From UHGV virus genome UHGV-1750711: a stretch of 22,473 nt of DNA. One strand, given 5' to 3'. Made by a program: the position numbers and the translations under genes. Positions within the stretch are counted from its first letter, which is position 1. Every line of letters starts with the position of its first letter. Source of the stretch: a virus. Below the pieces are notes generated by a model. The model was not told where the DNA came from, ran no database searches, and was given only the letters and a program-made list of their open reading frames with translations. Positions 55 through 17,719 of this stretch are shown piece by piece.

Positions 55-78
55 ACCCGCTTCGGCGGGTTTTTTGTT
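55..78 (+). terminator. Rho-independent terminator (ACCCGC-TTCG-GCGGGT hairpin plus T-run)
   Basis: Perfect 6-bp stem ACCCGC/GCGGGT with a TTCG tetraloop at 55-70, followed by TTTTTGTTGT. Probably ends a gene whose 3' end lies at the window start. Confidence 0.7.
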
Positions 79-123
79 GTGGTGGATAAATTAGCTTTTT
101 GTGTACTCTTTTAGCCGTAAGTC

Positions 124-151
124 TTGAGGGACTGACTGTTGTAAATAGAAT
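124..151 (+). promoter_or_regulatory. Putative sigma70 promoter for the 86-aa ORF (-35 TTGAGG, 16-bp spacer, -10 TAGAAT)
   Basis: Hexamers read by eye at 124-129 and 146-151, downstream of the terminator and about 80 nt upstream of the ATG at 232. No other support. Confidence 0.25.
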
Positions 152-231
152 CGTGTTTGCTTAGTTAGCGCGCAGGGAGAAGAGGGATGGACCCTTCAGG
201 GGAACGCTATTAATCTGGAAAATTTCTGTTT

Positions 232-492
232 ATGGATTTCAAGAAGTTGCGCAAAATTTTTAATAAAGATGGTCTCTATGCTGTGCGCGTTGAAAATGGG
301 GAAATTATTAGTTGTTACTGCATTCATTGCTCACGGGCTTTGCAACAGCCTAGTGGGGCTATGTTAATATATCTCTTGAATGGGCATGTGACGGACGGAT
401 TTATGTTGCGTGAAGATGAATTTGTCACATCATTACGGACATTAAAAGAAATTGGATTAAAAGCTGGCTTTTCTGCTTTTGAAGACGATTGA
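232..492 (+). CDS. Hypothetical small protein (86 aa) with a C-x-C-x2-C motif; candidate moron
   Basis: ORF 232-492 sits between a terminator and the nin-type genes. Contains SCYCIHC. Weak RBS; no family recognised. Confidence 0.45.
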   Translation: MDFKKLRKIFNKDGLYAVRVENGEIISCYCIHCSRALQQPSGAMLIYLLNGHVTDGFMLREDEFVTSLRTLKEIGLKAGFSAFEDD

Positions 493-558
493 ACTCATCT
501 ACAATTCAGCGCAGGGTTGACCCCCTGCTGAGTAACACCGTGCCACCGGAGAAAGCCG

Positions 559-1158
559 ATGGCACATATACAACTGATCAAACATACCTCTTCTGGATTA
601 CTGCTCCCGGCAACATCGGAGAGTTGCGAATTCTTGCATCAAATAAAAATAGGTGAGTGGATACACGCTGATTTTAAGCGCGTTCGTAACTACGCATTTC
701 ACAAGCGTTTTTTCAAACTCCTGCAACTCGGATTCGATTACTGGACTCCTGTCGGTGGGGCGATCACCTCTCGTGAACGAAAACTTGTGTCCGGTTTCGT
801 TGATTATCTGTGTGACTCGGTCGGCCGGGAACATACGCCAGCCCTGAGTGATGCCGCAGAACAATATCTGAATACCATTGCGATACGCAGAACCTGTGAT
901 ACGGCATTGCTAAAGTCATTTGATGCTTTCCGTGAATGGGTAACTATTGAGGCCGGATTTTACACCGAGCATTTTTATCCGGACGGTAGCCGTGGACGCA
1001 GGGCAAGATCTATCGCGTTTGCGAACATGGACGATACCGAGTTTCAGCAGGTTTATAAATCCGTACTGAATGTGCTTTGGAACTGGATCCTGTTCCGTAA
1101 ATTTTCCTCTCCGGAACAAGTCGAAAATGTTGCTGCGCAGCTGCTGGAGTTTGCGTAA
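559..1158 (+). CDS. Conserved lambdoid nin-region protein (DUF1367-like, tentative)
   Basis: 199-aa ORF whose stop overlaps the next start (TAATG at 1156-1160). Placement upstream of the Q-like gene fits a nin region; family assignment is from memory. Confidence 0.7.
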   Translation: MAHIQLIKHTSSGLLLPATSESCEFLHQIKIGEWIHADFKRVRNYAFHKRFFKLLQLGFDYWTPVGGAITSRERKLVSGFVDYLCDSVGREHTPALSDAAEQYLNTIAIRRTCDTALLKSFDAFREWVTIEAGFYTEHFYPDGSRGRRARSIAFANMDDTEFQQVYKSVLNVLWNWILFRKFSSPEQVENVAAQLLEFA

Positions 1159-1448
1159 TGGTGGATTTACGTAAAGCGGCTAAAGGCCAGATGTGCCAGA
1201 TCAGAATCCCTGGCTACTGCAATCACAATCCCGAAACCTCTGTGCTGGCGCATTACAGGCTGGCGGGGACGTGCGGAACAGCGACAAAACCACACGATAT
1301 GCAGGCAGCGATTGCCTATAGCTCATGCCACGATTTAATCGACGGGCGGGTAAAAACCAGCGATTACACCAAAGAAGAATTACGCCTGATGCATGCAGAA
1401 GGTGTTTTTCGCACACAAGAAATCTGGAGAAAGGAAGGTTATTTATGA
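1158..1448 (+). CDS. YbcO-like nin-region protein (DUF1364, putative nuclease)
   Basis: 96-aa ORF with the Cys/His-rich pattern (CQIRIPGYCNHNPE ... SSCHDLIDGR) that I recall from E. coli DLP12 YbcO. Coupled to both neighbours by overlapping stop/start. Confidence 0.7.
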   Translation: MVDLRKAAKGQMCQIRIPGYCNHNPETSVLAHYRLAGTCGTATKPHDMQAAIAYSSCHDLIDGRVKTSDYTKEELRLMHAEGVFRTQEIWRKEGYL

Positions 1449-1987
1449 TTTACCCAACAAATACAGGCAAAAGCGGGGAACACCTTCGTCTCACCACGCT
1501 GGAAAGTGTCTGGATTCAGGGAAAACTGCGCATGTGGGGGCGCTGGTCGTATATTGGCGGCGGTAAGACGGGAAATATGTTTAACCAGTTGCTGGCATCC
1601 AAAAAATTGACGAAAACAGCCGTCAATGAAGCCCTGCGCAGGATGAAAAAAGCGGGAATAGAGAAACCTGAGCTGGAAGCGTTTTTGCGAGAGATGATCA
1701 ATGGCAAGCAAAAGACCTGGCTGGCGCATTGTACTGATGCAGAGGCGTTATGTATTGATAGAGTCATAAGTGAGGTGCTGGCAAAACACCCAGGATTGAT
1801 TTGTATCCTCCGGCAACGATATGAAGGGAGGGGGATGACTAAGCGTAAAATGGCTGAATTGCTGAATGATGCACATCCTGAGTGGTGTTTTAGCACATGC
1901 GAAAAGCGAATTGCTAATTGGTTAGCCGTTGCTGAATATGCCCTGTATATTCCCATGCGAGAATCATTTGCTCAAAAAATAGCTTGA
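1445..1987 (+). CDS. Late-gene antitermination protein Q (Q-like family with WGxW motif)
   Basis: ATG at 1445 overlaps the upstream stop (ATGA). The 180-aa product contains LRMWGRWSY, which resembles the WGAW motif of QuuD-type Q proteins. Sits immediately upstream of a terminator, promoter-like region, tRNAs and the lysis genes. The 1325 start in the ORF track is rejected as an overlap artefact. Confidence 0.7.
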   Translation: MIYPTNTGKSGEHLRLTTLESVWIQGKLRMWGRWSYIGGGKTGNMFNQLLASKKLTKTAVNEALRRMKKAGIEKPELEAFLREMINGKQKTWLAHCTDAEALCIDRVISEVLAKHPGLICILRQRYEGRGMTKRKMAELLNDAHPEWCFSTCEKRIANWLAVAEYALYIPMRESFAQKIA

Positions 1988-2071
1988 TTTTTTACGCATA
2001 AATTGCTTCAATTCCGGTATGTTTCGCAAAGCTGTATCGCGAGGCGAACCAAGCGCATGAACTTTACCAGA

Positions 2072-2098
2072 ACCCGCCATTGAGCGGGTTTTGTTGTT
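2072..2098 (+). terminator. Hairpin plus T-rich tract just downstream of Q (terminator or part of a qut/pause region)
   Basis: ACCCGC (2072-2077), loop CATTGA, GCGGGT (2084-2089), then TTTTGTTGTTT. Confidence 0.5.
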
Positions 2099-2129
2099 TC
2101 TGGGGGGCATTTCGTTAAATGAAGCTGTG

Positions 2130-2175
2130 TTGTGCGCAATTAGCTAATAACACGAATCGTGAATGTATATAATGC
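2130..2175 (+). promoter_or_regulatory. Putative late promoter (pR'-like) region with -10 TATAAT at 2168-2173
   Basis: Consensus TATAAT at 2168-2173 preceded by TG-rich sequence; no clean -35. Location between Q and the tRNA/lysis genes matches where lambdoid phages place pR'. Confidence 0.3.
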
Positions 2176-2320
2176 GCTTGTTCCTTCGATGGTGTATTCG
2201 AATAACGGATTACTGAATACAGCTATCCCATTAAGGGAACACCGCCATCTGCTCATCGGGAAGAGCCGACCATCATTTAAGTGGTAGGTGTGAGATTCGA
2301 TACCTCGGTGGCGGTTCTGT

Positions 2321-2396
<76 letters not shown>

Positions 2397-2399
2397 TAT

Positions 2400-2474
<75 letters not shown>

Positions 2475-2749
2475 GCATTTGAAATAAGCCTTATTGTATT
2501 GCAGCACTGGCGTATTTTTATTACGTGGGAGCAGGTTGTTTCGAAAAAGCATTCTGTTCTCTGGCTATGATTTGAGGCCAGGTGTAGCCTCAGTGCTGAT
2601 TTTTTTACGGCAGCAGAATGGTGCATTATCGGTGGAGATTTTGTATTTCCTGGCAGGGCCGGTGATGTGCCATCCCGATGTTGTAAACATCGCTAAAAAT
2701 GACATTGAGATTAATCATATACTAAGCAAAACCTGGAAATACATCCTTT

Positions 2750-2775
2750 ACCGCCTCCACCGGGCGGTTTTTTTT
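2750..2775 (+). terminator. Strong rho-independent terminator (tR'-like) ending the short late-leader/tRNA transcript
   Basis: ACCGCC (2750-2755), loop TCCACCG, GGCGGT (2763-2768), followed by eight T residues. Confidence 0.7.
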
Positions 2776-3160
2776 ATTCTGAACCCTAAAAAAAGAAACA
2801 CGGACACTGATAATGCCCGTGTGGCAATGCCATGTAAGTTAGCGATGAATATGGCGCAAAAAAAGCGCGGCCGTCGGATTAACGCCGCGGGACAAAGTCC
2901 ATGAAGAATCATAAGTATTGGCCCCCTTCTGGGGACATGTTCATACTACTAAGCTTCAGAAGTGGTTTAAATCATCAAATTAACCTTAATTTTCGATAAG
3001 TCTTATTTCATTTCTTTGCGCCACATCTGGCGCGCATCAAATAACGCCACGCAAAGGGCATCTGCGGATGCCGGTGCTTTTGACGGGGTGTTTTTTACGG
3101 GCCGCTGGTGGCCATTTTTTGTTTCCATTACACAGCGCCCGCATCTGCGAGGTGGGGGTT

Positions 3161-3376
3161 ATGAAATCCATGGATAAGTTAACAACGGGTGTCGCCTATG
3201 GCACCTCCGCAGGCAGTGCTGGCTACTGGTTTTTACAGTTGCTCGATAGAGTAACTCCGTCACAGTGGGCTGCAATCGGTGTGCTGGGTAGTCTGGTTTT
3301 TGGCCTGCTGACGTACCTGACAAACCTTTATTTCAAGATTAAAGAAGATAAGCGCAAGGCTGCGAGAGGTGAATAA
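3161..3376 (+). CDS. Class II holin/pinholin, phage 21 S21-like, with MKSM dual start
   Basis: Product [71 protein letters not shown] (71 aa) is near-identical to phage 21 S21 as I recall it. Two predicted TM segments. Stop overlaps the endolysin start. The upstream extension from 3068 is rejected. Confidence 0.9.
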
Positions 3377-3873
3377 TGCCTCCATCATTACGAAAAGCCG
3401 TTGCTGCTGCTATTGGTGGCGGAGCAATTGCTATAGCATCAGTGTTAATCACTGGCCCAAGTGGTAACGATGGTCTGGAAGGTGTCAGCTACATACCATA
3501 CAAAGATATTGTTGGTGTATGGACTGTATGTCACGGGCATACAGGAAAAGACATCATGCTCGGTAAAACGTATACCAAAGCAGAATGCAAAGCACTCTTG
3601 AATAAAGACCTTGCCACTGTCGCCAGACAAATTAACCCGTACATCGAAGTCGATATACCGGAAACAACGCGCGGCGCTCTTTACTCATTCGTTTACAACG
3701 TGGGTGCTGGCAATTTCAGAACATCGACGCTTCTTCGCAAAATAAACCAGGGCGATATCAAAGGCGCATGTGATCAGCTACGTCGCTGGACATATGCTGG
3801 CGGTAAGCAATGGAAAGGTCTCATGACTCGTCGTGAGATTGAGCGTGAAATCTGTTTGTGGGGTCAGCAATGA
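3376..3873 (+). CDS. SAR endolysin (lysozyme with N-terminal signal-anchor-release domain, R21-like)
   Basis: 165 aa. N-terminal Gly/Ala-rich weakly hydrophobic segment ([20 protein letters not shown]) followed by a lysozyme-like domain. Directly follows the pinholin and overlaps the Rz start (ATGA). Confidence 0.9.
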
Positions 3874-4172
3874 ACAGAGTAACCGCGATTATCTCCGCTC
3901 TGGTTATCTGCATCATCGTCTGCCTGTCATGGGCTGTTAATCATTACCGTGATAACGCCATTACCTACAAAGCCCAGCGCGACAAAAATGCCAGAGAACT
4001 GAAGCTGGCGAACGCGGCAATTACTGACATGCAGATGCGCCAGCGTGATGTTGCTGCACTGGATGAAAAATACACGAAGGAGTTAGCTAATGCGAAAGCT
4101 GAAAATGATGCTCTGCGTGATGATGTTGCCGCTGGTCGTCGTCGGTTGCACATCCGCCTCCGGCGTGGATAA
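3870..4172 (+). pseudogene. Rz: Rz (i-spanin) N-terminal part, truncated by a frameshifting deletion (rzpR-like)
   Basis: [21 protein letters not shown]... matches lambda Rz through ...AAGRRRLHI, then diverges and stops (RLRRG*). The Rz C-terminal homology ([27 protein letters not shown]...) continues in the +1 frame. Confidence 0.7.
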
Positions 4173-4299
4173 TGCAGCCTCCCCCCGACTGGCAGACACC
4201 GCTGAACGGGATTATTTCACCCTCCGGGAACGACTGGTAATGATGCAGGCCCAACTTGAAGGTGCTCAGCAATACATAACCGAACAGTGTTTAAAGTAA
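4090..4299 (+). pseudogene. Rz1: Chimeric ORF: Rz1 (o-spanin) signal peptide and lipobox fused in frame to the Rz C-terminal coiled-coil segment
   Basis: Starts [22 protein letters not shown] (Rz1 lipoprotein signal, RBS AAGGAG 9 nt upstream), then reads [21 protein letters not shown]...EQCLK, which is Rz C-terminal sequence. The Rz1 C-terminus (PPPDWQTPLNGIISPS) lies in a third frame at 4178-4240. Consistent with a ~35-nt deletion near 4155. Confidence 0.6.
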
Positions 4300-4436
4300 A
4301 ATCTTAACTACAATATGATTCATTTTGATGATTGTTTCATAAGGAACAGTGAAGTAAGATCTAAGAGGAGTTAAATTTTATACAGTATAATCATAATATT
4401 GCAGCAAGGTGGTTATAATTGAAAGAATATTTAGAT

Positions 4437-5894
4437 ATGAATACATCTCATGTAAGAGTTGTTACTCATATGTGTGGGTTTCTGGTTTGGCTCTATAGTC
4501 TTTCAATGTTGCCACCAATGGTTGTAGCATTGTTTTATAAAGAAAAAAGCCTGTTCGTTTTCTTTATAACTTTCGTTATGTTTTTTTGCATTGGTGGCGG
4601 AGCGTGGTATACAACTAAGAAATCTGGCATTCAATTACGTACCCGTGATGGGTTTATTATAATTGTAATGTTTTGGATTTTGTTTTCTGTTATTAGTGCA
4701 TTCCCTTTATGGATTGACTCAGAACTTAATTTAACGTTCATTGATGCTCTGTTTGAAGGGGTTTCTGGAATAACAACAACAGGAGCAACTGTAATTGATG
4801 ATGTTAGTTCATTACCTCGGGCATATTTGTACTATCGGTCACAGTTAAATTTTATAGGTGGTTTAGGAGTTATTGTTCTGGCGGTTGCTGTATTGCCATT
4901 ATTGGGTATTGGTGGTGCAAAGCTTTATCAGTCAGAAATGCCGGGGCCATTTAAGGATGACAAACTCACTCCCCGCCTGGCCGATACGTCACGGACACTG
5001 TGGATAACTTATTCTTTATTAGGTATTGCTTGTATTGTCTGTTATAGACTTGCAGGAATGCCTTTGTTTGATGCTATTTGTCACGGGATTTCCACAGTTT
5101 CGCTTGGTGGTTTCTCAACTCATAGCGAGAGTATCGGATATTTTAATAACTATTTGGTTGAGCTGGTGGCTGGTTCTTTTTCCCTGCTATCGGCTTTCAA
5201 CTTCACTCTTTGGTATATTGTTATTAGCAGGAAAACGATAAAACCTTTAATCAGAGATATTGAACTTCGTTTCTTTCTGTTAATAGCCTTAGGGGTGATC
5301 ATTGTTACCTCTTTCCAGGTCTGGCATATAGGTATGTATGACTTGCATGGAAGTTTTATTCATTCGTTTTTTCTTGCCAGCTCCATGCTCACTGATAATG
5401 GTTTAGCTACGCAGGATTATGCAAACTGGCCCACGCACACGATAGTGTTTTTGCTGTCGTCAAGTTTCTTTGGGGGATGTATAGGTTCAACTTGTGGTGG
5501 AATTAAGTCACTTCGATTTCTTATACTTTTCAAACAAAGCAAACACGAGATAAATCAGCTTTCTCATCCCAGAGCGTTGTTGAGTGTAAATGTAGGAGGG
5601 AAGATAGTTACAGATCGTGTAATGAGGTCTGTATGGAGTTTCTTTTTTCTTTATACTCTCTTCACGGTGTTTTTTATACTGGTGTTAAATGGTATGGGAT
5701 ATGATTTTCTTACATCATTTGCAACAGTGGCTGCATGTATTAATAATATGGGATTAGGTTTTGGGGCTACTGCATCGTCATTCGGAGTGCTTAATGACAT
5801 TGCAAAATATTTAATGTGCATAGCTATGATTCTTGGTCGCCTTGAAATTTATCCTGTTATTATATTGTTTTCAGGTTTTTTTTGGCGCTCCTAA
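4437..5894 (+). CDS. trkG: TrkG/TrkH-family K+ uptake transporter membrane subunit (prophage-borne moron)
   Basis: 485 aa starting MNTSHVRVVTHMCGFLVWLY. Multi-pass membrane protein with repeated selectivity-filter-like GxG motifs (SGITTTGATV, VSLGGFST, IGSTCGGI). Markedly AT-rich against its flanks. Matches E. coli Rac-prophage TrkG as I recall it; the ORF-track start at 4419 is a TTG and is rejected in favour of the ATG at 4437. Confidence 0.9.
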   Translation: MNTSHVRVVTHMCGFLVWLYSLSMLPPMVVALFYKEKSLFVFFITFVMFFCIGGGAWYTTKKSGIQLRTRDGFIIIVMFWILFSVISAFPLWIDSELNLTFIDALFEGVSGITTTGATVIDDVSSLPRAYLYYRSQLNFIGGLGVIVLAVAVLPLLGIGGAKLYQSEMPGPFKDDKLTPRLADTSRTLWITYSLLGIACIVCYRLAGMPLFDAICHGISTVSLGGFSTHSESIGYFNNYLVELVAGSFSLLSAFNFTLWYIVISRKTIKPLIRDIELRFFLLIALGVIIVTSFQVWHIGMYDLHGSFIHSFFLASSMLTDNGLATQDYANWPTHTIVFLLSSSFFGGCIGSTCGGIKSLRFLILFKQSKHEINQLSHPRALLSVNVGGKIVTDRVMRSVWSFFFLYTLFTVFFILVLNGMGYDFLTSFATVAACINNMGLGFGATASSFGVLNDIAKYLMCIAMILGRLEIYPVIILFSGFFWRS

Positions 5895-6030
5895 TATATG
5901 GCTGATTTATAATTGTGAGTTTAATATTATATTGACTCACTCATTGATCCAATACCTAACTTTACCAGCAACACCTCCGCCCCAGTAGCACTGGCTGCTG
6001 GGGTGCGTTTTATTCATAAAGCAAGGCTGT

Positions 6031-6819
6031 ATGAGCGAGAAATTAAAGATAGTCTATCGCCCATTACAAGAATTGTCACCGTATGCGCACAACGCCAGGA
6101 CGCACAGTACTGAGCAGGTGGCACAACTGGTAGAAAGTATTAAGCAATTCGGCTGGACTAATCCGGTGCTGATTGACGAAAAGGGCGAAATTATTGCGGG
6201 TCACGGTCGTGTTATGGCGGCTGAAATGCTCAAAATGGATTCTGTTCCGGTCATTGTTCTGTCTGGCCTGACGGATGAGCAGAAAAAGGCGTACCGCCTG
6301 GCAGATAATCGCCTACCGATGAATGCTGGCTGGGATGAAGATCTGTTGCGGATGGAGCTGTCGGACCTAATCAATGCTGATTTTGATGTCTCCCTGACAG
6401 GCTTCGGCCCGACAGAAATTGATGAACTGTTGACGGATGTTTTGCCCGGTACAGGAAATAAGGAGGAGCCGTATACGACGAAAATTGATACGCCTGTTTA
6501 TGAGCCGTCGGGCGGTAAACCGGATATCAGTGAACTGTATGACGATACGAAAACTCAGGAGCTGATCAGCCGGATACGTTCGGCGTCCCTTGATCCTGAT
6601 ATTGAGAAATTCCTCCTGTGTGCGGCAGAACGTCACACGGTGTTTAATTTCAGCAGAATTGCGGACTATTACGCTCATGCCCCCGCTGAAATTCAGTGCC
6701 TTTTCGAGGAGTCGGCGCTGGTGATCATTGATTATCAGCAGGCTATTGAAAATGGATTTGTCCGAATGACGCAGCGCATGGTGGCGATCATGCATAGCGG
6801 GGAGGAGGAATATGTGTGA
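6031..6819 (+). CDS. ParB/Srx-fold N-terminal domain protein (ParB-like nuclease domain protein)
   Basis: 262 aa. N-terminus has ParB-N-like motifs (PLQELSPYAHNARTH ... IIAGHGRVMAA ... KAYRLADNRL). Stop overlaps the downstream start. Confidence 0.75.
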   Translation: MSEKLKIVYRPLQELSPYAHNARTHSTEQVAQLVESIKQFGWTNPVLIDEKGEIIAGHGRVMAAEMLKMDSVPVIVLSGLTDEQKKAYRLADNRLPMNAGWDEDLLRMELSDLINADFDVSLTGFGPTEIDELLTDVLPGTGNKEEPYTTKIDTPVYEPSGGKPDISELYDDTKTQELISRIRSASLDPDIEKFLLCAAERHTVFNFSRIADYYAHAPAEIQCLFEESALVIIDYQQAIENGFVRMTQRMVAIMHSGEEEYV

Positions 6820-7744
6820 TGATTTTTGCGCCTTTATTCTGACTCACGGGCGACCGGACAAAGTTCTGACTTACCGGACGTTGCGTCGTGCTGGCTATAC
6901 CGGGAAAATTTTTATCGTTGTTGATGATGAAGATAAGACACGGCATCAGTACATGGCTGAATTTGGTGAACAGGTGCTGGTATTTTCCAAAGCCGATATT
7001 GCCAGTCGTTTTGACGAAGCCGATAATTTTGGTGACCACCGCTCAATTTTTTACGCCCGTAATGCCTGTTTCGACCTGGCAAAACTGGTCGGGTGTAAAT
7101 ACTTCATTCAGCTCGATGATGATTATCACGAGTTCCAGTTTCGGGTGGATCGCAACTATGACCAGGCCTATTTCCCGATAAGGAAACTGGATGCGATCCT
7201 TTCTGAAATGCTGGCGTATTACGAATCAATACCCGCGCTTTCCATCGCTATGTCGCAGGGCGGGGATTTTCTTGGTGACAATGGCGGCCATGCTTCGTGG
7301 GTGAAACGCAAGGCAATGAACAGCTTTATCTGTTCGGTTGATCGACCGTTCTCATTCATGGGGCGCATTAACGAGGATGTGAATACGTACACGAATCTCG
7401 GTCGCCGTGGTGAATTGTTTATGACGATCGGTGCTGTCCAGTTAGGGCAGAAACAGACGCAGAAAAACAGCGGCGGAATGACCGAGCTGTATCTGGATTC
7501 CGGGACCTACGTTAAAAGTTTTTATTCCGTCATGTATGCGCCGTCGTGCGTAAAAATCTCACTGATGGGCGCCAGCCATAAACGCATTCACCATCAGGTC
7601 ACCTGGAACAACGCTGCAGTAAAAATCCTTCACGAAAAATACAGGAAGAAGACACCCTGCATATTAATGGGGGTGACAAATGATTCCGTATTCGAAAGTC
7701 GAGTCTCTGGCAGCGTGCCGGATGACTGCACAACAAATCGCTGA
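6812..7744 (+). CDS. Putative GT-A-fold nucleotide-sugar glycosyltransferase-like protein (DXD motif); function unknown
   Basis: Strong RBS GGAGGAGGA before the ATG at 6812. Motif order typical of GT-A folds: AFILTHGRP, IFIVVDDED, FIQLDDDYHEF. No TM segments, so not GtrB-like. The last ~20 codons overlap the next ORF in another frame, so the true 3' end is uncertain. Confidence 0.6.
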   Translation: MCDDFCAFILTHGRPDKVLTYRTLRRAGYTGKIFIVVDDEDKTRHQYMAEFGEQVLVFSKADIASRFDEADNFGDHRSIFYARNACFDLAKLVGCKYFIQLDDDYHEFQFRVDRNYDQAYFPIRKLDAILSEMLAYYESIPALSIAMSQGGDFLGDNGGHASWVKRKAMNSFICSVDRPFSFMGRINEDVNTYTNLGRRGELFMTIGAVQLGQKQTQKNSGGMTELYLDSGTYVKSFYSVMYAPSCVKISLMGASHKRIHHQVTWNNAAVKILHEKYRKKTPCILMGVTNDSVFESRVSGSVPDDCTTNR

Positions 7745-7931
7745 CGTTCTGGATGTTGATCTGAACCGACTGAAAGAAAATCGGGAAGCAATGACAAATT
7801 TTTACGCGTCCATCCGTAAGGGCAGAGCGAAAGGTGAAGCCGAGCTACGGGCGGCATTGTTTAAGCTTGCCAGAAAAGGGGATGCCTTTGCCCTGCGCGA
7901 ACTACTCAGGGTGGATAAAAATCAGGACTAA
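7680..7931 (+). CDS. Hypothetical small protein (83 aa) immediately upstream of the terminase small subunit
   Basis: ORF with SD-like GGGGGTGA before the ATG at 7680. Overlaps the preceding gene by 65 nt. An alternative start at ATG 7722 is possible. Confidence 0.45.
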   Translation: MIPYSKVESLAACRMTAQQIADVLDVDLNRLKENREAMTNFYASIRKGRAKGEAELRAALFKLARKGDAFALRELLRVDKNQD

Positions 7932-7934
7932 CTG

Positions 7935-9029
7935 ATGAGCAGACCGGACTGGGGGGCGTTGCAGCAGGAGTATATTGCTGAATACACCCGCTCCGGTATA
8001 TCTCCGGTGGCATGGTGTGAAGCAAGGGGACTGAATTACGCAACAGCCCGTCGTTACATCAAAAAACCTCCGAAAAATGCGCAGACAGAAATGCGCAAAA
8101 CTGCGCAAAAAAGTGCGCAGAAAAAATCTGCGCAGACTGCACAAAAGCGGAACGGAAAATCTCAGGAAAAAAAGCCAGTATCCGATGCGTACCTGAATGA
8201 GGGCGATGCGGAAGAAATTTCGTTCTGTCCCGATGAATTCGGCGTTTCTGACCAGCAGGCGAAATTCGCAATGCTGGTTGCCCAGGGGAAAAAACTCGTT
8301 GAGGCATATCGCCTGGCAGGATACGAGTCAGAGGGGAATGCGGCCTACGTAACCGCCAGCCAGCTCCTAAGAAATCCTAAGGTTTTTCGTGCTATCAGCT
8401 ACTTCCGCAATCAGTACCAGAAACGCTATACCGCAGACCTGGATTTACTGGTGAGTCAGTTGATGGCCATTGTCCAGGCCGACCCCAATCAGTTGGCACA
8501 ATTTCGCCGTGTTAACTGCCGTTATTGCTGGGGCGAGAATCATCACTACCAGTGGCGCGATATAGCAGAATTCGATAAGGCAGCGGCGCAGGCCTCCAGA
8601 GATGGCAAACCCGAGCCGGAATATGGTGGCCTTGGCTTTGTTGATAACGCCATACCCAATCCGGACTGCCCGAAGTGCTGCGGTGAGGGAACGGGGCAGC
8701 TTTATATGGCTGATACCACTCTGCTTGATGGGGAAGCGCGGCAATTATATGCAGGGGCAAAGCTCGGAAAATTTGGTGTTGAGATCCTGCTGGAGGATAA
8801 GGCTGCCGCCCGGCGTGAATTGTTGCGTTTGCTTGCTGCTGGTGGGGCTTTATGTGCAGATAAGCGGCTACAGGAACTGGAAATTGAACGGCGCAGAATG
8901 GAAAACCAGAAGCTGCGCAAAGAGATCGAAACGGTGGAAGATAATGAACATCCCCAGCCTGTGGCGATCAATATTAATGTGGTTGATGCCAGAGTAAGGA
9001 GTGATGAAGATGATCTCTCCGACGCTTAA
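7935..9029 (+). CDS. Terminase small subunit (N-terminal HTH, basic repeat linker, C-terminal Cys4 zinc-ribbon-like motif)
   Basis: 364 aa. Contains the recognisable TerS segment LVAQGKKLVEAYRLAGY...NAAYVTASQLLRNPKV and C-x2-C...C-x2-C (CRYC ... CPKCC). Lies immediately upstream of the large subunit. Confidence 0.75.
   Translation: MSRPDWGALQQEYIAEYTRSGISPVAWCEARGLNYATARRYIKKPPKNAQTEMRKTAQKSAQKKSAQTAQKRNGKSQEKKPVSDAYLNEGDAEEISFCPDEFGVSDQQAKFAMLVAQGKKLVEAYRLAGYESEGNAAYVTASQLLRNPKVFRAISYFRNQYQKRYTADLDLLVSQLMAIVQADPNQLAQFRRVNCRYCWGENHHYQWRDIAEFDKAAAQASRDGKPEPEYGGLGFVDNAIPNPDCPKCCGEGTGQLYMADTTLLDGEARQLYAGAKLGKFGVEILLEDKAAARRELLRLLAAGGALCADKRLQELEIERRRMENQKLRKEIETVEDNEHPQPVAININVVDARVRSDEDDLSDA
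8077..8146 (+). repeat. Imperfect tandem TGCGCA-R-AAA repeats within terS (encode the basic KSAQK/TAQK linker)
   Basis: TGCGCA recurs at roughly 8079, 8092, 8102, 8114 and 8129 with 10-15 nt spacing. Confidence 0.6.
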
Positions 9030-10311
9030 TGTGCCTCAGGCGCGATTTCTTTCAATGCCCCATAAATTTAAAGCCTATATTGCTGGTTTTGGCTCGGGCA
9101 AAACATGGGTTGGGTGTGGCGGCATATGCAAGGGGATTTGGGAGCATCCAGGTATAAATCAGGGATATTTTGCGCCAACGTATCCCCAAATTCGCGATAT
9201 TTTTTACCCTACAGTGGAAGAAGTTGCTGCTGACTGGGGATTGAACGTAAAAATTAATGAGGGAAATAAAGAGGTTCACTTTTATTACGGACGCCAGTAT
9301 CGGGGAACCACTATCTGCAGATCGATGGAGAAGCCACAAACGATCGTCGGTTTCAAAATTGGTAATGCGTTGGTGGATGAACTGGACATTTTGCCGAAGG
9401 AAAAAGCCAGAACGGCGTGGCGCAAGATAATTGCGCGTATGCGTTATAAGATTGATGGACTTCGCAACGGTATTGACGTTACAACCACGCCGGAAGGATT
9501 CAAATTTGTCTACGAGCAGTTTGTTAAAGCCGTGCGTGAAAAAACAGAGCTGGCCTCACTGTATGGTCTGGTGCAGGCATCTACTTTCGATAATGAAAAG
9601 AACCTGCCAGCAGATTACATTCCTTCGCTTCTTGAATCATACCCTCCAGAGCTGATTAAAGCCTATCTGCGAGGACAGTTTACTAACCTGACAAGTGGTA
9701 CTGTTTACCATCAGTTTGACCGGAAACTGAATAATTGCGAAGAAGTGGAGCAGCCAGGGGAGTCGATTTATATTGGGATGGATTTTAACGTTGGAAAGAT
9801 GGCGGGAATCGTCCATGTGCTGCGTTTGGGGCTTCCATGTGCGGTAACTGAAATCATCAATGCCTACGATACGCCGGATATGATCCGCATCATTAAAGAA
9901 CGCTTCTGGCTGTATGATGGGAATGATTACCGGAAAGTGAGGGAAATTTATATTTATCCAGATGCTTCCGGGGATTCCAGAAAATCAAGTAACGCAAGTA
10001 CGACGGATATAGCCCAGCTTAAGCAGGCTGGTTTTAACGTTGTGGTGAACAGCTCGAACCCGCCAGTAAAAGATCGCGTTAACTCAATGAATGCAATGTT
10101 CTGCAATGCCAATGGTGAGCGTCGCTATAAAGTTAATGTGAAGCGTTGCCCGTTATATGCCGAATCTCTGGAGCAACAGGTCTGGGATGAGAAGGGGGAG
10201 CCTGATAAAAAATCTGGCAATGATCACCCGAATGATGCCGGAGGTTATTTCATCGTTAAGCAATTCCCTATTGTCAAACCGACCGGAAGAGTCACATCAC
10301 TTCGGATTTAA
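9010..10311 (+). CDS. Terminase large subunit (ATPase/nuclease)
   Basis: Walker-A-like AGFGSGKT near the N-terminus. The ATG at 9010 is preferred because AAGGAG sits 8 nt upstream; the ORF track begins at a GTG at 9001. Confidence 0.85.
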   Translation: MISPTLNVPQARFLSMPHKFKAYIAGFGSGKTWVGCGGICKGIWEHPGINQGYFAPTYPQIRDIFYPTVEEVAADWGLNVKINEGNKEVHFYYGRQYRGTTICRSMEKPQTIVGFKIGNALVDELDILPKEKARTAWRKIIARMRYKIDGLRNGIDVTTTPEGFKFVYEQFVKAVREKTELASLYGLVQASTFDNEKNLPADYIPSLLESYPPELIKAYLRGQFTNLTSGTVYHQFDRKLNNCEEVEQPGESIYIGMDFNVGKMAGIVHVLRLGLPCAVTEIINAYDTPDMIRIIKERFWLYDGNDYRKVREIYIYPDASGDSRKSSNASTTDIAQLKQAGFNVVVNSSNPPVKDRVNSMNAMFCNANGERRYKVNVKRCPLYAESLEQQVWDEKGEPDKKSGNDHPNDAGGYFIVKQFPIVKPTGRVTSLRI

Positions 10312-16768: not shown

Positions 16769-17719
16769 GTGAGTTCAGGTGCAAAGGTTATCTCGGCATT
16801 TATCCGGGAGACGGTTGCAGGCACTACGCCAGCAAGTGGTGACTGGAGTTTATTAAAACGCACAAGCTGGGGAGTAAAACCCACCCAGAATAAAAGCGAA
16901 AATAATGAGATTGGTGGCTCCCGGATGGCTCAGGGGGCGACGCCTGGCACTGTGGATGTCGGCGGTGATGTTGGTACCAAATTTCGCTGGGGTCAACATG
17001 ATGATTTTCTTGCATCCTGTTTCGGCGCGGAATGGTCAGGCGATTCTCTGACAATGGGGAATGAGCGAATAACATTTTCTCTGGCGACCTATGCGTCCGA
17101 TGTCGGAATTGCCTCTGTCGTCAGAGGAGCGCAGGTTGGCTCATGGAAAATGCAGATCCCTAACGACGGCGATATTACAGCGACCGTAACCTTTGCCGGA
17201 CTGGACTGGGAATCAAAGGCCGATGATACGAATTTTATCAAAGGCGAACCTGTGGATAGTGCAGGAAAGCTACGTTATTCGTTTAAGGAGGTTTCAGCAG
17301 TAAGCCTGAATGGTGTTGCCGGAGGTAACGGTTTTTGTATCGACAGTTTTGATATTCAGTTCGATAACAAACTCCAGACACAGCGTTGTATCGGGACTGG
17401 CTCGCCTTATGCAGGAGCAAATATTCCGACTACTTTTACACCGTCCGGTACGGTGACGCTTTCATGGTCTAAAGCCGCGTGGGAAATCTGGAGTAAAACA
17501 CTGACTGGAGAAACAGTTCCGTTCAGCTTCACGCTTTCGAATGGAGAGGGGGCATACACTTTCAGTTTCCCGAAGGTTCAGGTGTCAGGTGAATGGCCTG
17601 ATGGGGGTAATACCGACATTATCCAGGTTCAATTGAGCATTACCGCAGCAGATGAAGCACCTACGATAACCAGAAAAAAAAGCCTCCCCGGCTGCCGTGA
17701 TCGCAAAAGCCAGTGCTGA
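16769..17719 (+). CDS. Major tail (tube) protein
   Basis: GTG start with RBS TAGGAGG 5 nt upstream; 316 aa. Precedes the G/GT chaperone pair. The 3' end contains an A8 homopolymer, so the C-terminus is uncertain. Confidence 0.75.
   Translation: MSSGAKVISAFIRETVAGTTPASGDWSLLKRTSWGVKPTQNKSENNEIGGSRMAQGATPGTVDVGGDVGTKFRWGQHDDFLASCFGAEWSGDSLTMGNERITFSLATYASDVGIASVVRGAQVGSWKMQIPNDGDITATVTFAGLDWESKADDTNFIKGEPVDSAGKLRYSFKEVSAVSLNGVAGGNGFCIDSFDIQFDNKLQTQRCIGTGSPYAGANIPTTFTPSGTVTLSWSKAAWEIWSKTLTGETVPFSFTLSNGEGAYTFSFPKVQVSGEWPDGGNTDIIQVQLSITAADEAPTITRKKSLPGCRDRKSQC

Follow-up and report, generated by a model that had tools for sequence, protein, structure and literature searches.

A 35-nt deletion across the embedded Rz/Rz1 genes of a trkG-carrying, Rac-type Escherichia coli prophage and its predicted effect on both spanin subunits

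The window analyzed here (the whole 22,473-nt stretch of DNA, UHGV virus genome UHGV-1750711) carries a lysis cassette in which the genes for both spanin subunits, Rz and Rz1, are broken by one 35-nt gap. The locus very likely represents a 35-bp deletion, recent and private, that shifts the frames of the embedded Rz/Rz1 genes (rzpD/rzoD-type) of a Rac-type, trkG-carrying lambdoid E. coli prophage, recovered in a human-gut metagenome assembly. Since Rz1 lies inside Rz in the +1 frame, a single deletion can inactivate both spanin subunits, and the locus should be a double spanin null when judged by the genetics of lambda. We infer that the lesion is ordinary neutral prophage decay in well-known genes rather than a new kind of lysis protein.

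Results

The plus strand of the window from 3161 to 4299 was identified as a phage 21-type lysis cassette consisting of a pinholin gene, an endolysin gene and the Rz/Rz1 region (3870-4299), and the corresponding features are presented in Table 1. The pinholin matched PF04971 over its full length (Pfam, E 4.8e-35), and at the DNA level it shows 100% identity to the gene annotated as essD in E. coli 13P484A. The endolysin matched PF00959 over its full length (Pfam, E 2.8e-45) and the solved structures 4zpu (RrrD) and 3hde over all 165 residues (E ~1e-111), and direct reading of its translation revealed an N-terminal Gly/Ala-rich, SAR-like segment together with E35, D44 and T50. An S21-family class II holin is thus followed by a SAR lysozyme with the E-D-T triad, and the initial annotation, which had described both proteins as looking intact, was right on this point. 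The window shares with phage 21-type cassettes the gene order, a full-length match to the P21 holin family and an R21/RrrD-type endolysin, a likeness that rests on the Pfam and PDB matches of the pinholin and endolysin; it differs from them in its broken spanin step and in the trkG cargo gene that follows the cassette.

Table 1 Features of the lysis region in the window.
Feature	Position	Strand	Description
Pinholin gene (essD / phage 21 S-type)	3161..3376	+	71 aa, dual-start MKSM, intact
SAR-type endolysin gene (rrrD / R21-like)	3376..3873	+	165 aa, intact
Truncated i-spanin gene Rz'	3870..4172	+	100 aa; Rz residues 1-95 (TMD, CC1, start of linker), then 5 out-of-frame codons and a stop
Chimeric ORF	4090..4299	+	69 aa; Rz1 residues 1-22 fused to Rz residues 108-154
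Deletion junction	4153..4154	.	exactly 35 nt missing: CAAAGCAGTCTGTCAGTCAGTGCGTGAAGCCACCA; from alignments
Stranded Rz1 C-terminal remnant	4172..4240	+	22-codon ORF MQPPPDWQTPLNGIISPSGNDW plus stop, third frame; from translation and comparison with the 61-aa RzoD of 13P484A
trkG (K+ transporter), cargo gene	4437..5894	+	ORF; outside the lesion; marks the Rac-type prophage lysis region

The trkG gene is annotated at the same place in E. coli 13P484A, H2, w264, PSJ-07 and K-12 Rac, and a PF02386 match was found in the trkG copy of an ENA scaffold described below. An AT-rich spacer (4300-4436) separates the Rz stop from trkG, which resembles foreign cargo placed directly after the lysis cassette, as in K-12 Rac. 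Upstream, two prophage-borne tRNA genes, tRNA-Thr(tgt) at 2321-2396 (+) and tRNA-Gly(tcc) at 2400-2474 (+), lie between the Q-like antiterminator region (a DUF1133 gene) and the lysis cassette, and both are annotated in all relatives too.

Along its entire length, the window shares 99.98-100% identity with prophages of E. coli isolated from river water, salad, a pig and a human vaginal sample, from which it differs only by one to three SNPs, by IS elements in the isolates and by the 35-nt gap. The spanin locus of these relatives encodes a 154-aa Rz (annotated as "lysis protein", WP_021520059.1) and a 61-aa RzoD (WP_001228696.1), which match PF03245 at positions 1-125 and PF06085 at positions 1-40 of 41, respectively (Pfam). 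At the protein level, lambda Rz is 93% identical to this intact Rz.

The initial annotation had proposed a deletion of about 35 nt in this region, and alignment to 13P484A, H2, lambda and K-12 Rac fixed it at exactly 35 nt, between positions 4153 and 4154. In the Rz/Rz1-region alignment with 13P484A and H2, this single gap is the sole difference, and the missing segment CAAAGCAGTCTGTCAGTCAGTGCGTGAAGCCACCA is present and invariant in lambda, K-12 Rac and H2. When 5,426 complete E. coli genomes were searched by megablast, many matches of 100% identity were obtained, all of them split into two pieces and spanning 486 nt against 451 nt of the query. The deletion removes Rz codons 96-107 (KAVCQSVREATT, C99 included) and Rz1 codons 23-33, which comprise C29 and the start of the proline-rich region, and it shifts the frame of both genes. 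As for its origin, no direct repeats were found at the deletion endpoints, which share only 1 nt of microhomology, and slippage between repeats is thus unsupported. Folding of a 91-nt stretch of the intact allele as single-stranded DNA revealed no unusual hairpin across the deleted segment when compared with shuffled sequences (z = -0.42), and a structure-mediated deletion is likewise unsupported. The mutational route of the deletion is explained neither by repeats nor by DNA structure.

The first product of the disrupted locus, Rz', opens at ATG 3870, reads MNRV...AAGRRRLHI and then RLRRG, and ends at a TAA stop (4170-4172), in agreement with the earlier description of a lambda-like Rz frame that continues up to RRRLHI and then terminates after 5 unrelated codons. 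Rz' covers only positions 1-67 of the 126 in the PF03245 model (Pfam), and alignment with the intact 154-aa Rz and with lambda Rz confirmed that residues 96-154 are absent. The N-terminal hydrophobic segment expected of an i-spanin with type II inner-membrane topology (residues ~4-24) is retained and identical to that of intact Rz. The complete periplasmic domain of an i-spanin, made up of CC1, linker, CC2 and a C-terminal segment for contact with the o-spanin, is lacking, as Rz' ends after residue 95 and five foreign codons.

The second product is the fusion of the Rz1 signal peptide to the Rz C-terminus that had been predicted at the outset. Its Rz1 part contributes the start codon, an AAGGAG ribosome-binding site, the signal peptide and the VVGC lipobox (residues 17-20), while its Rz part contributes the end of the linker, CC2 and the C-terminal domain and matches PF03245 at positions 78-125 (Pfam). 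No match to PF06085, the Rz1 family, was detected by Pfam in the chimera or in any window ORF tested. The o-spanin signal peptide and lipobox are unchanged, with native residues at +2 and +3 (Thr, Ser), and lipidation of the Cys is predicted. The o-spanin mature domain (the proline-rich region, the C-terminal domain and the C29 disulfide) is missing, since codons 23-33 are deleted and the remainder is out of frame. Given the retained strong ribosome-binding site and valid lipobox, the chimera is probably made as a protein and, by analogy with lambda Rz1, is probably sent to the outer membrane as a lipoprotein with a mature length of 50 residues that carries CC2. An annotation pipeline would report a 100-aa "lysis protein" at this locus and overlook the 69-aa chimera.

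The lost C-terminus of Rz1 is stranded in the third frame, as the initial annotation had noted for 4178-4240, a stretch that reads PPPDWQTPLNGIISPSGNDW followed by a stop; the ORF actually opens at ATG 4172. In native Rz1 this ATG encodes Met40; here it overlaps the stop codon of Rz' (TAATG, 4170-4174), a configuration that resembles a site of termination and reinitiation but arose by accident through the deletion. The 22-codon ORF could conceivably be translated by coupling to the Rz' stop, and it has neither a signal peptide nor an export signal. At the DNA level, the embedded layout is still recognizable and its position is right; after the deletion, the ORF that opens at the Rz1 start runs beyond the premature Rz stop, so that it is no longer embedded.

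The rarity of the junction was assessed with several queries. A junction 51-mer with fewer than 28 nt on either side, which can seed a megablast match only across the junction, had no match in the 5,426 complete E. coli genomes, and neither had a junction 60-mer in a small-word blastn search of the same genomes (E <= 1e-6). The exact junction 30-mer occurred zero times in GTDB species genomes, IMG/VR and JGI metagenome contigs. The full rrrD-Rz-trkG arrangement was found in ~698 genomes. When 60 evenly spaced genomes were taken down the whole ranking of a query running from rrrD into trkG, none contained the deletion junction, and every match crossing it, K-12 included, was ~35 nt longer than the query there, with an extra indel of its own in two rows.

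The 100-aa, ATG-start Rz' was recorded on one contig only, a 23,232-bp human-gut metagenome scaffold in ENA (ERZ28666384, ZELL14-1_SAMEA2466917 scaffold_712). This scaffold is identical to window positions 76-10172, with the junction included among the 10,097 shared positions, and the window begins 75 nt before its first base, which makes the two separate records, possibly derived from the same reads. Exact-sequence look-ups of the 69-aa chimera and of a 104-aa, GTG-start form of Rz' returned no record. A protein search for full-length relatives of the chimera yielded many matches of 78-81 aa, which are different frame switches and none of which has the junction of the window. Most of these are lambda-identical singletons on ~3.5-kb ENA contigs, and a small number, with 1-nt shifts, are from E. 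coli genomes. Among proteins P0001-P0120 of this search, dozens are Rz1::Rz frame-switch singletons whose termini are exactly those of lambda and whose points of frame switching all differ. In our opinion, the lambda-identical singletons are probably indel errors in long-read contigs of a lambda control fragment, and Rz1::Rz chimeras in public protein sets are often artefacts. Given that the relatives are otherwise 99.98-100% identical and differ only by a few SNPs, IS elements and the gap, the deletion appears to be very recent and private.

Discussion

The consequence of the deletion can be predicted from lambda, in which the domains of Rz have been assigned to residues 1-24 (TMD), 27-87 (CC1), 89-120 (linker L2) and 121-150 (CC2), followed by the C-terminal domain (Cahill et al., G3 2017, PMC5295617). 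In the saturation mutagenesis of that study, Rz nonsense alleles across the periplasmic domain were lysis-defective, engineered stops at codons 151 and 152 were also defective and only R153 was dispensable, while the end of CC2 was implicated in Rz1 binding (PMC5295617). Nonsense alleles of Rz1, an outer-membrane lipoprotein, were defective up to W46, and its proline-rich region is mutationally essential; Rz is proteolysed when Rz1 is absent, and a defect in either subunit results in spherical cells bounded by the outer membrane (PMC5295617). Since Rz' lacks CC2 and the Rz1-binding end, and no product has the Rz1 periplasmic domain behind a signal peptide, a double spanin null is predicted for the window.

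According to this prediction, the inner-membrane subunit would be left without CC2 and without the Rz1-binding C-terminal domain, while the outer-membrane lipoprotein would keep its signal peptide, its lipobox and two further residues before reading into the Rz frame, with its proline-rich and C-terminal domains lost. No bridge from the inner to the outer membrane would then be formed, and the last step of lysis, disruption of the outer membrane, would be lost. Upon induction, the pinholin and the SAR endolysin would still be expected to kill the cell and degrade its wall, and under any condition that stabilizes the outer membrane, the process would stop short of release, at the stage of spherical cells that are osmotically fragile. 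Where this prophage is scored as lysis-competent, its spanin step should be marked as defective. The locus is a clean example of how the embedded Rz/Rz1 architecture leaves both subunits vulnerable to one small indel.

Other explanations of the locus were weighed against the deletion. An assembly or sequencing artefact, in which the strain has an intact Rz/Rz1 pair and the gap arose during library preparation or during metagenome assembly or scaffolding, is suggested by the facts that the allele is known only from metagenome-derived assembled sequence (the window and one ENA scaffold) and that the junction is absent from all isolate genomes searched. Moreover, E. coli genomes usually contain several Rz paralogues (median 2 places per genome), a kind of repeat well known for causing problems in assembly, and indel errors do create Rz1::Rz chimeras in public contigs. 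We nevertheless consider an artefact unlikely. The window, which has no Ns, and the scaffold are different records that agree at every shared position including the junction; a k-mer graph would presumably need junction-spanning reads to join two endpoints that share a single nucleotide; and because both flanks perfectly match one and the same relative, the junction is not a chimera of paralogues. Even less credible, with hardly any chance of being correct, is that some distinct phage lineage natively has this arrangement as its intact form, and no evidence was found in favor of this reading, which the initial annotation had named as a refuting case. The 35 nt are present in all phage and prophage relatives retrieved, and in the alignments to lambda and to the closest phage-collection records (deposited as phages, e.g. 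vB_EcoS-606R9), where a related phage with the same arrangement could have been found, all span the extra ~35 nt. The window is also 100% identical to prophages with an intact pair, and the C-terminal remnant of Rz1 persists without any change in another frame, as would be anticipated if the lesion is very recent.

It could also be supposed that the two products form a working or neo-functional pair. They might act as a split i-spanin, with an inner-membrane CC1 and a lipid-anchored outer-membrane CC2 zippering like SNAREs, or as a decoy, with the outer-membrane-tethered Rz C-terminal domain binding the Rz1 of co-resident lambdoid phages. The Rz1 start, AAGGAG, signal peptide, VVGC and Thr/Ser at +2/+3 are all unchanged, so the chimera should be made, and by analogy with lambda Rz1 it should be lipidated and directed to the outer membrane; most E. 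coli genomes have more than one Rz/Rz1 locus. The chimera also carries CC2 and the C-terminal segment assigned to Rz1 binding in lambda, and the published fusion model invokes a conformational change in the coiled-coil domains (PMC5295617). We regard such a pair as highly improbable: the allele is a singleton that shows neither spread nor conservation, Rz is not stable in the absence of Rz1, and even combined, the two fragments fall short of the length of the intact Rz-Rz1 complex, which itself only roughly equals the ~25-nm periplasm (PMC5295617). A more specific version, in which Rz 1-95 and the lipobox-anchored Rz 108-154 pair in trans as an accidental split i-spanin after wall degradation and either still drive outer-membrane disruption, with no proline-rich domain of Rz1 involved, or act through the outer-membrane decoy to poison co-resident lambdoid spanins, is more improbable still. 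If true, a split or decoy spanin would put the membrane-fusion model of spanin action to a natural test, and the chimera could be a ready-made construct for asking whether an outer-membrane-tethered CC2 is active, though nothing suggests that it is.

Of the two alternatives offered in the initial annotation, the decaying lysis cassette is thus favored: the closest relatives have the intact pair, the junction was found nowhere else in the collections scanned, and lambda genetics predicts a double loss. Nothing supports the other, an active lipoprotein-anchored coiled-coil chimera. The features of a private loss-of-function allele were found in the window, namely a frame broken relative to otherwise identical orthologues, a rare allele and a lost Rz1 tail that is still recognizable out of frame. 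With its pinholin and endolysin intact, the prophage would still kill its host upon induction, and spanin loss alone would give the host no obvious protection; neutral decay is therefore favored over selected domestication.

Sister prophages have private lesions of their own, which fits neutral decay. In 13P484A an IS1 lies upstream of the tRNA genes (near window positions ~2021-2029), in w264 an IS3 lies inside the small terminase gene terS (near ~8668-8674), and in PSJ-07 the large terminase gene terL has an internal stop. Near-identical copies of a Rac-type prophage in different E. coli strains thus each gather their own inactivating lesion. For KFu024, STS73-1-E and OZ501612, an IS3 transposase is listed over the same match span, probably the same terS insertion. 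The window has no IS elements at ~2021-2029 and ~8668-8674, where 100%-identical relatives have them. In the tail-tube ORF of the window (16769-17719, +), a 1-nt indel at an A-run close to the 3' end (~17673-17681) alters the last ~14 residues when compared with the intact 320-aa gene of PSJ-07. This indel is common to the window and w264, where the gene is annotated as "frameshifted", and could be a second prophage defect or a tolerated C-terminal variant. The remaining morphogenesis genes of the window look largely intact, and the prophage is not obviously dead. Independent events in the same genes were also seen in E. coli records, with in-frame internal Rz deletions in three (P0108, P0114 and P0119) and Rz1-to-Rz frame switches in two (P0008, and P0021 at a C-run). 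For biology at large the lesion carries little weight and is nothing new in kind.

The intact systems to which the locus belongs are lambda Rz/Rz1, rzpD/rzoD of DLP12 and the intact Rac-type alleles, which consist of the same genes in the same position after holin and endolysin and in the same +1 embedded layout; the Rac-type alleles show 100% nucleotide identity to the window outside the gap. Compared with the lambda and Rac-type pair, the window misses 35 nt, its Rz has no residues 96-154, its Rz1 has nothing after residue 22, and a hybrid lipoprotein::Rz-C-terminus ORF has been created. The rzpR pseudogene of K-12 Rac, to which the cassette had been likened at first, is comparable in part. 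It belongs to the same prophage family, lies immediately upstream of trkG, is near-identical over the shared part and is likewise a decayed spanin locus. However, in K-12 Rac the holin gene, the endolysin gene and the 5' portion of Rz are gone, while the 35 nt and an intact 61-aa rzoR remain. The window still has all three of these lost elements in intact form, and both of its spanin genes are destroyed by a deletion in their interior. The lesion types differ, and taken literally as the same lesion, the likeness was rejected.

Like u-spanins such as phage T1 gp11, the chimera has a lipoprotein signal at its N-terminus, including the lipobox Cys. By definition, a u-spanin has a transmembrane segment at its C-terminus that anchors it in the inner membrane (PMC5295617), and no hydrophobic window was found beyond residue ~26 of the chimera, which was therefore rejected as a u-spanin for want of a C-terminal TMD.

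The window carries the morphogenesis block that lies between ynaK and ydaY, which is missing from K-12 in its entirety. On DNA identical to 6031-7744, RefSeq lists only a 258-nt "ynaK pseudogene" and a hypothetical protein. In the window, a 262-aa ORF with a ParB_N domain (ynaK-like; 6031-6819, +) is located upstream of the terminase genes, and it is followed, just upstream of them, by a 310-aa ORF (6812-7744, +) with a match to PF20691, "TAGT".
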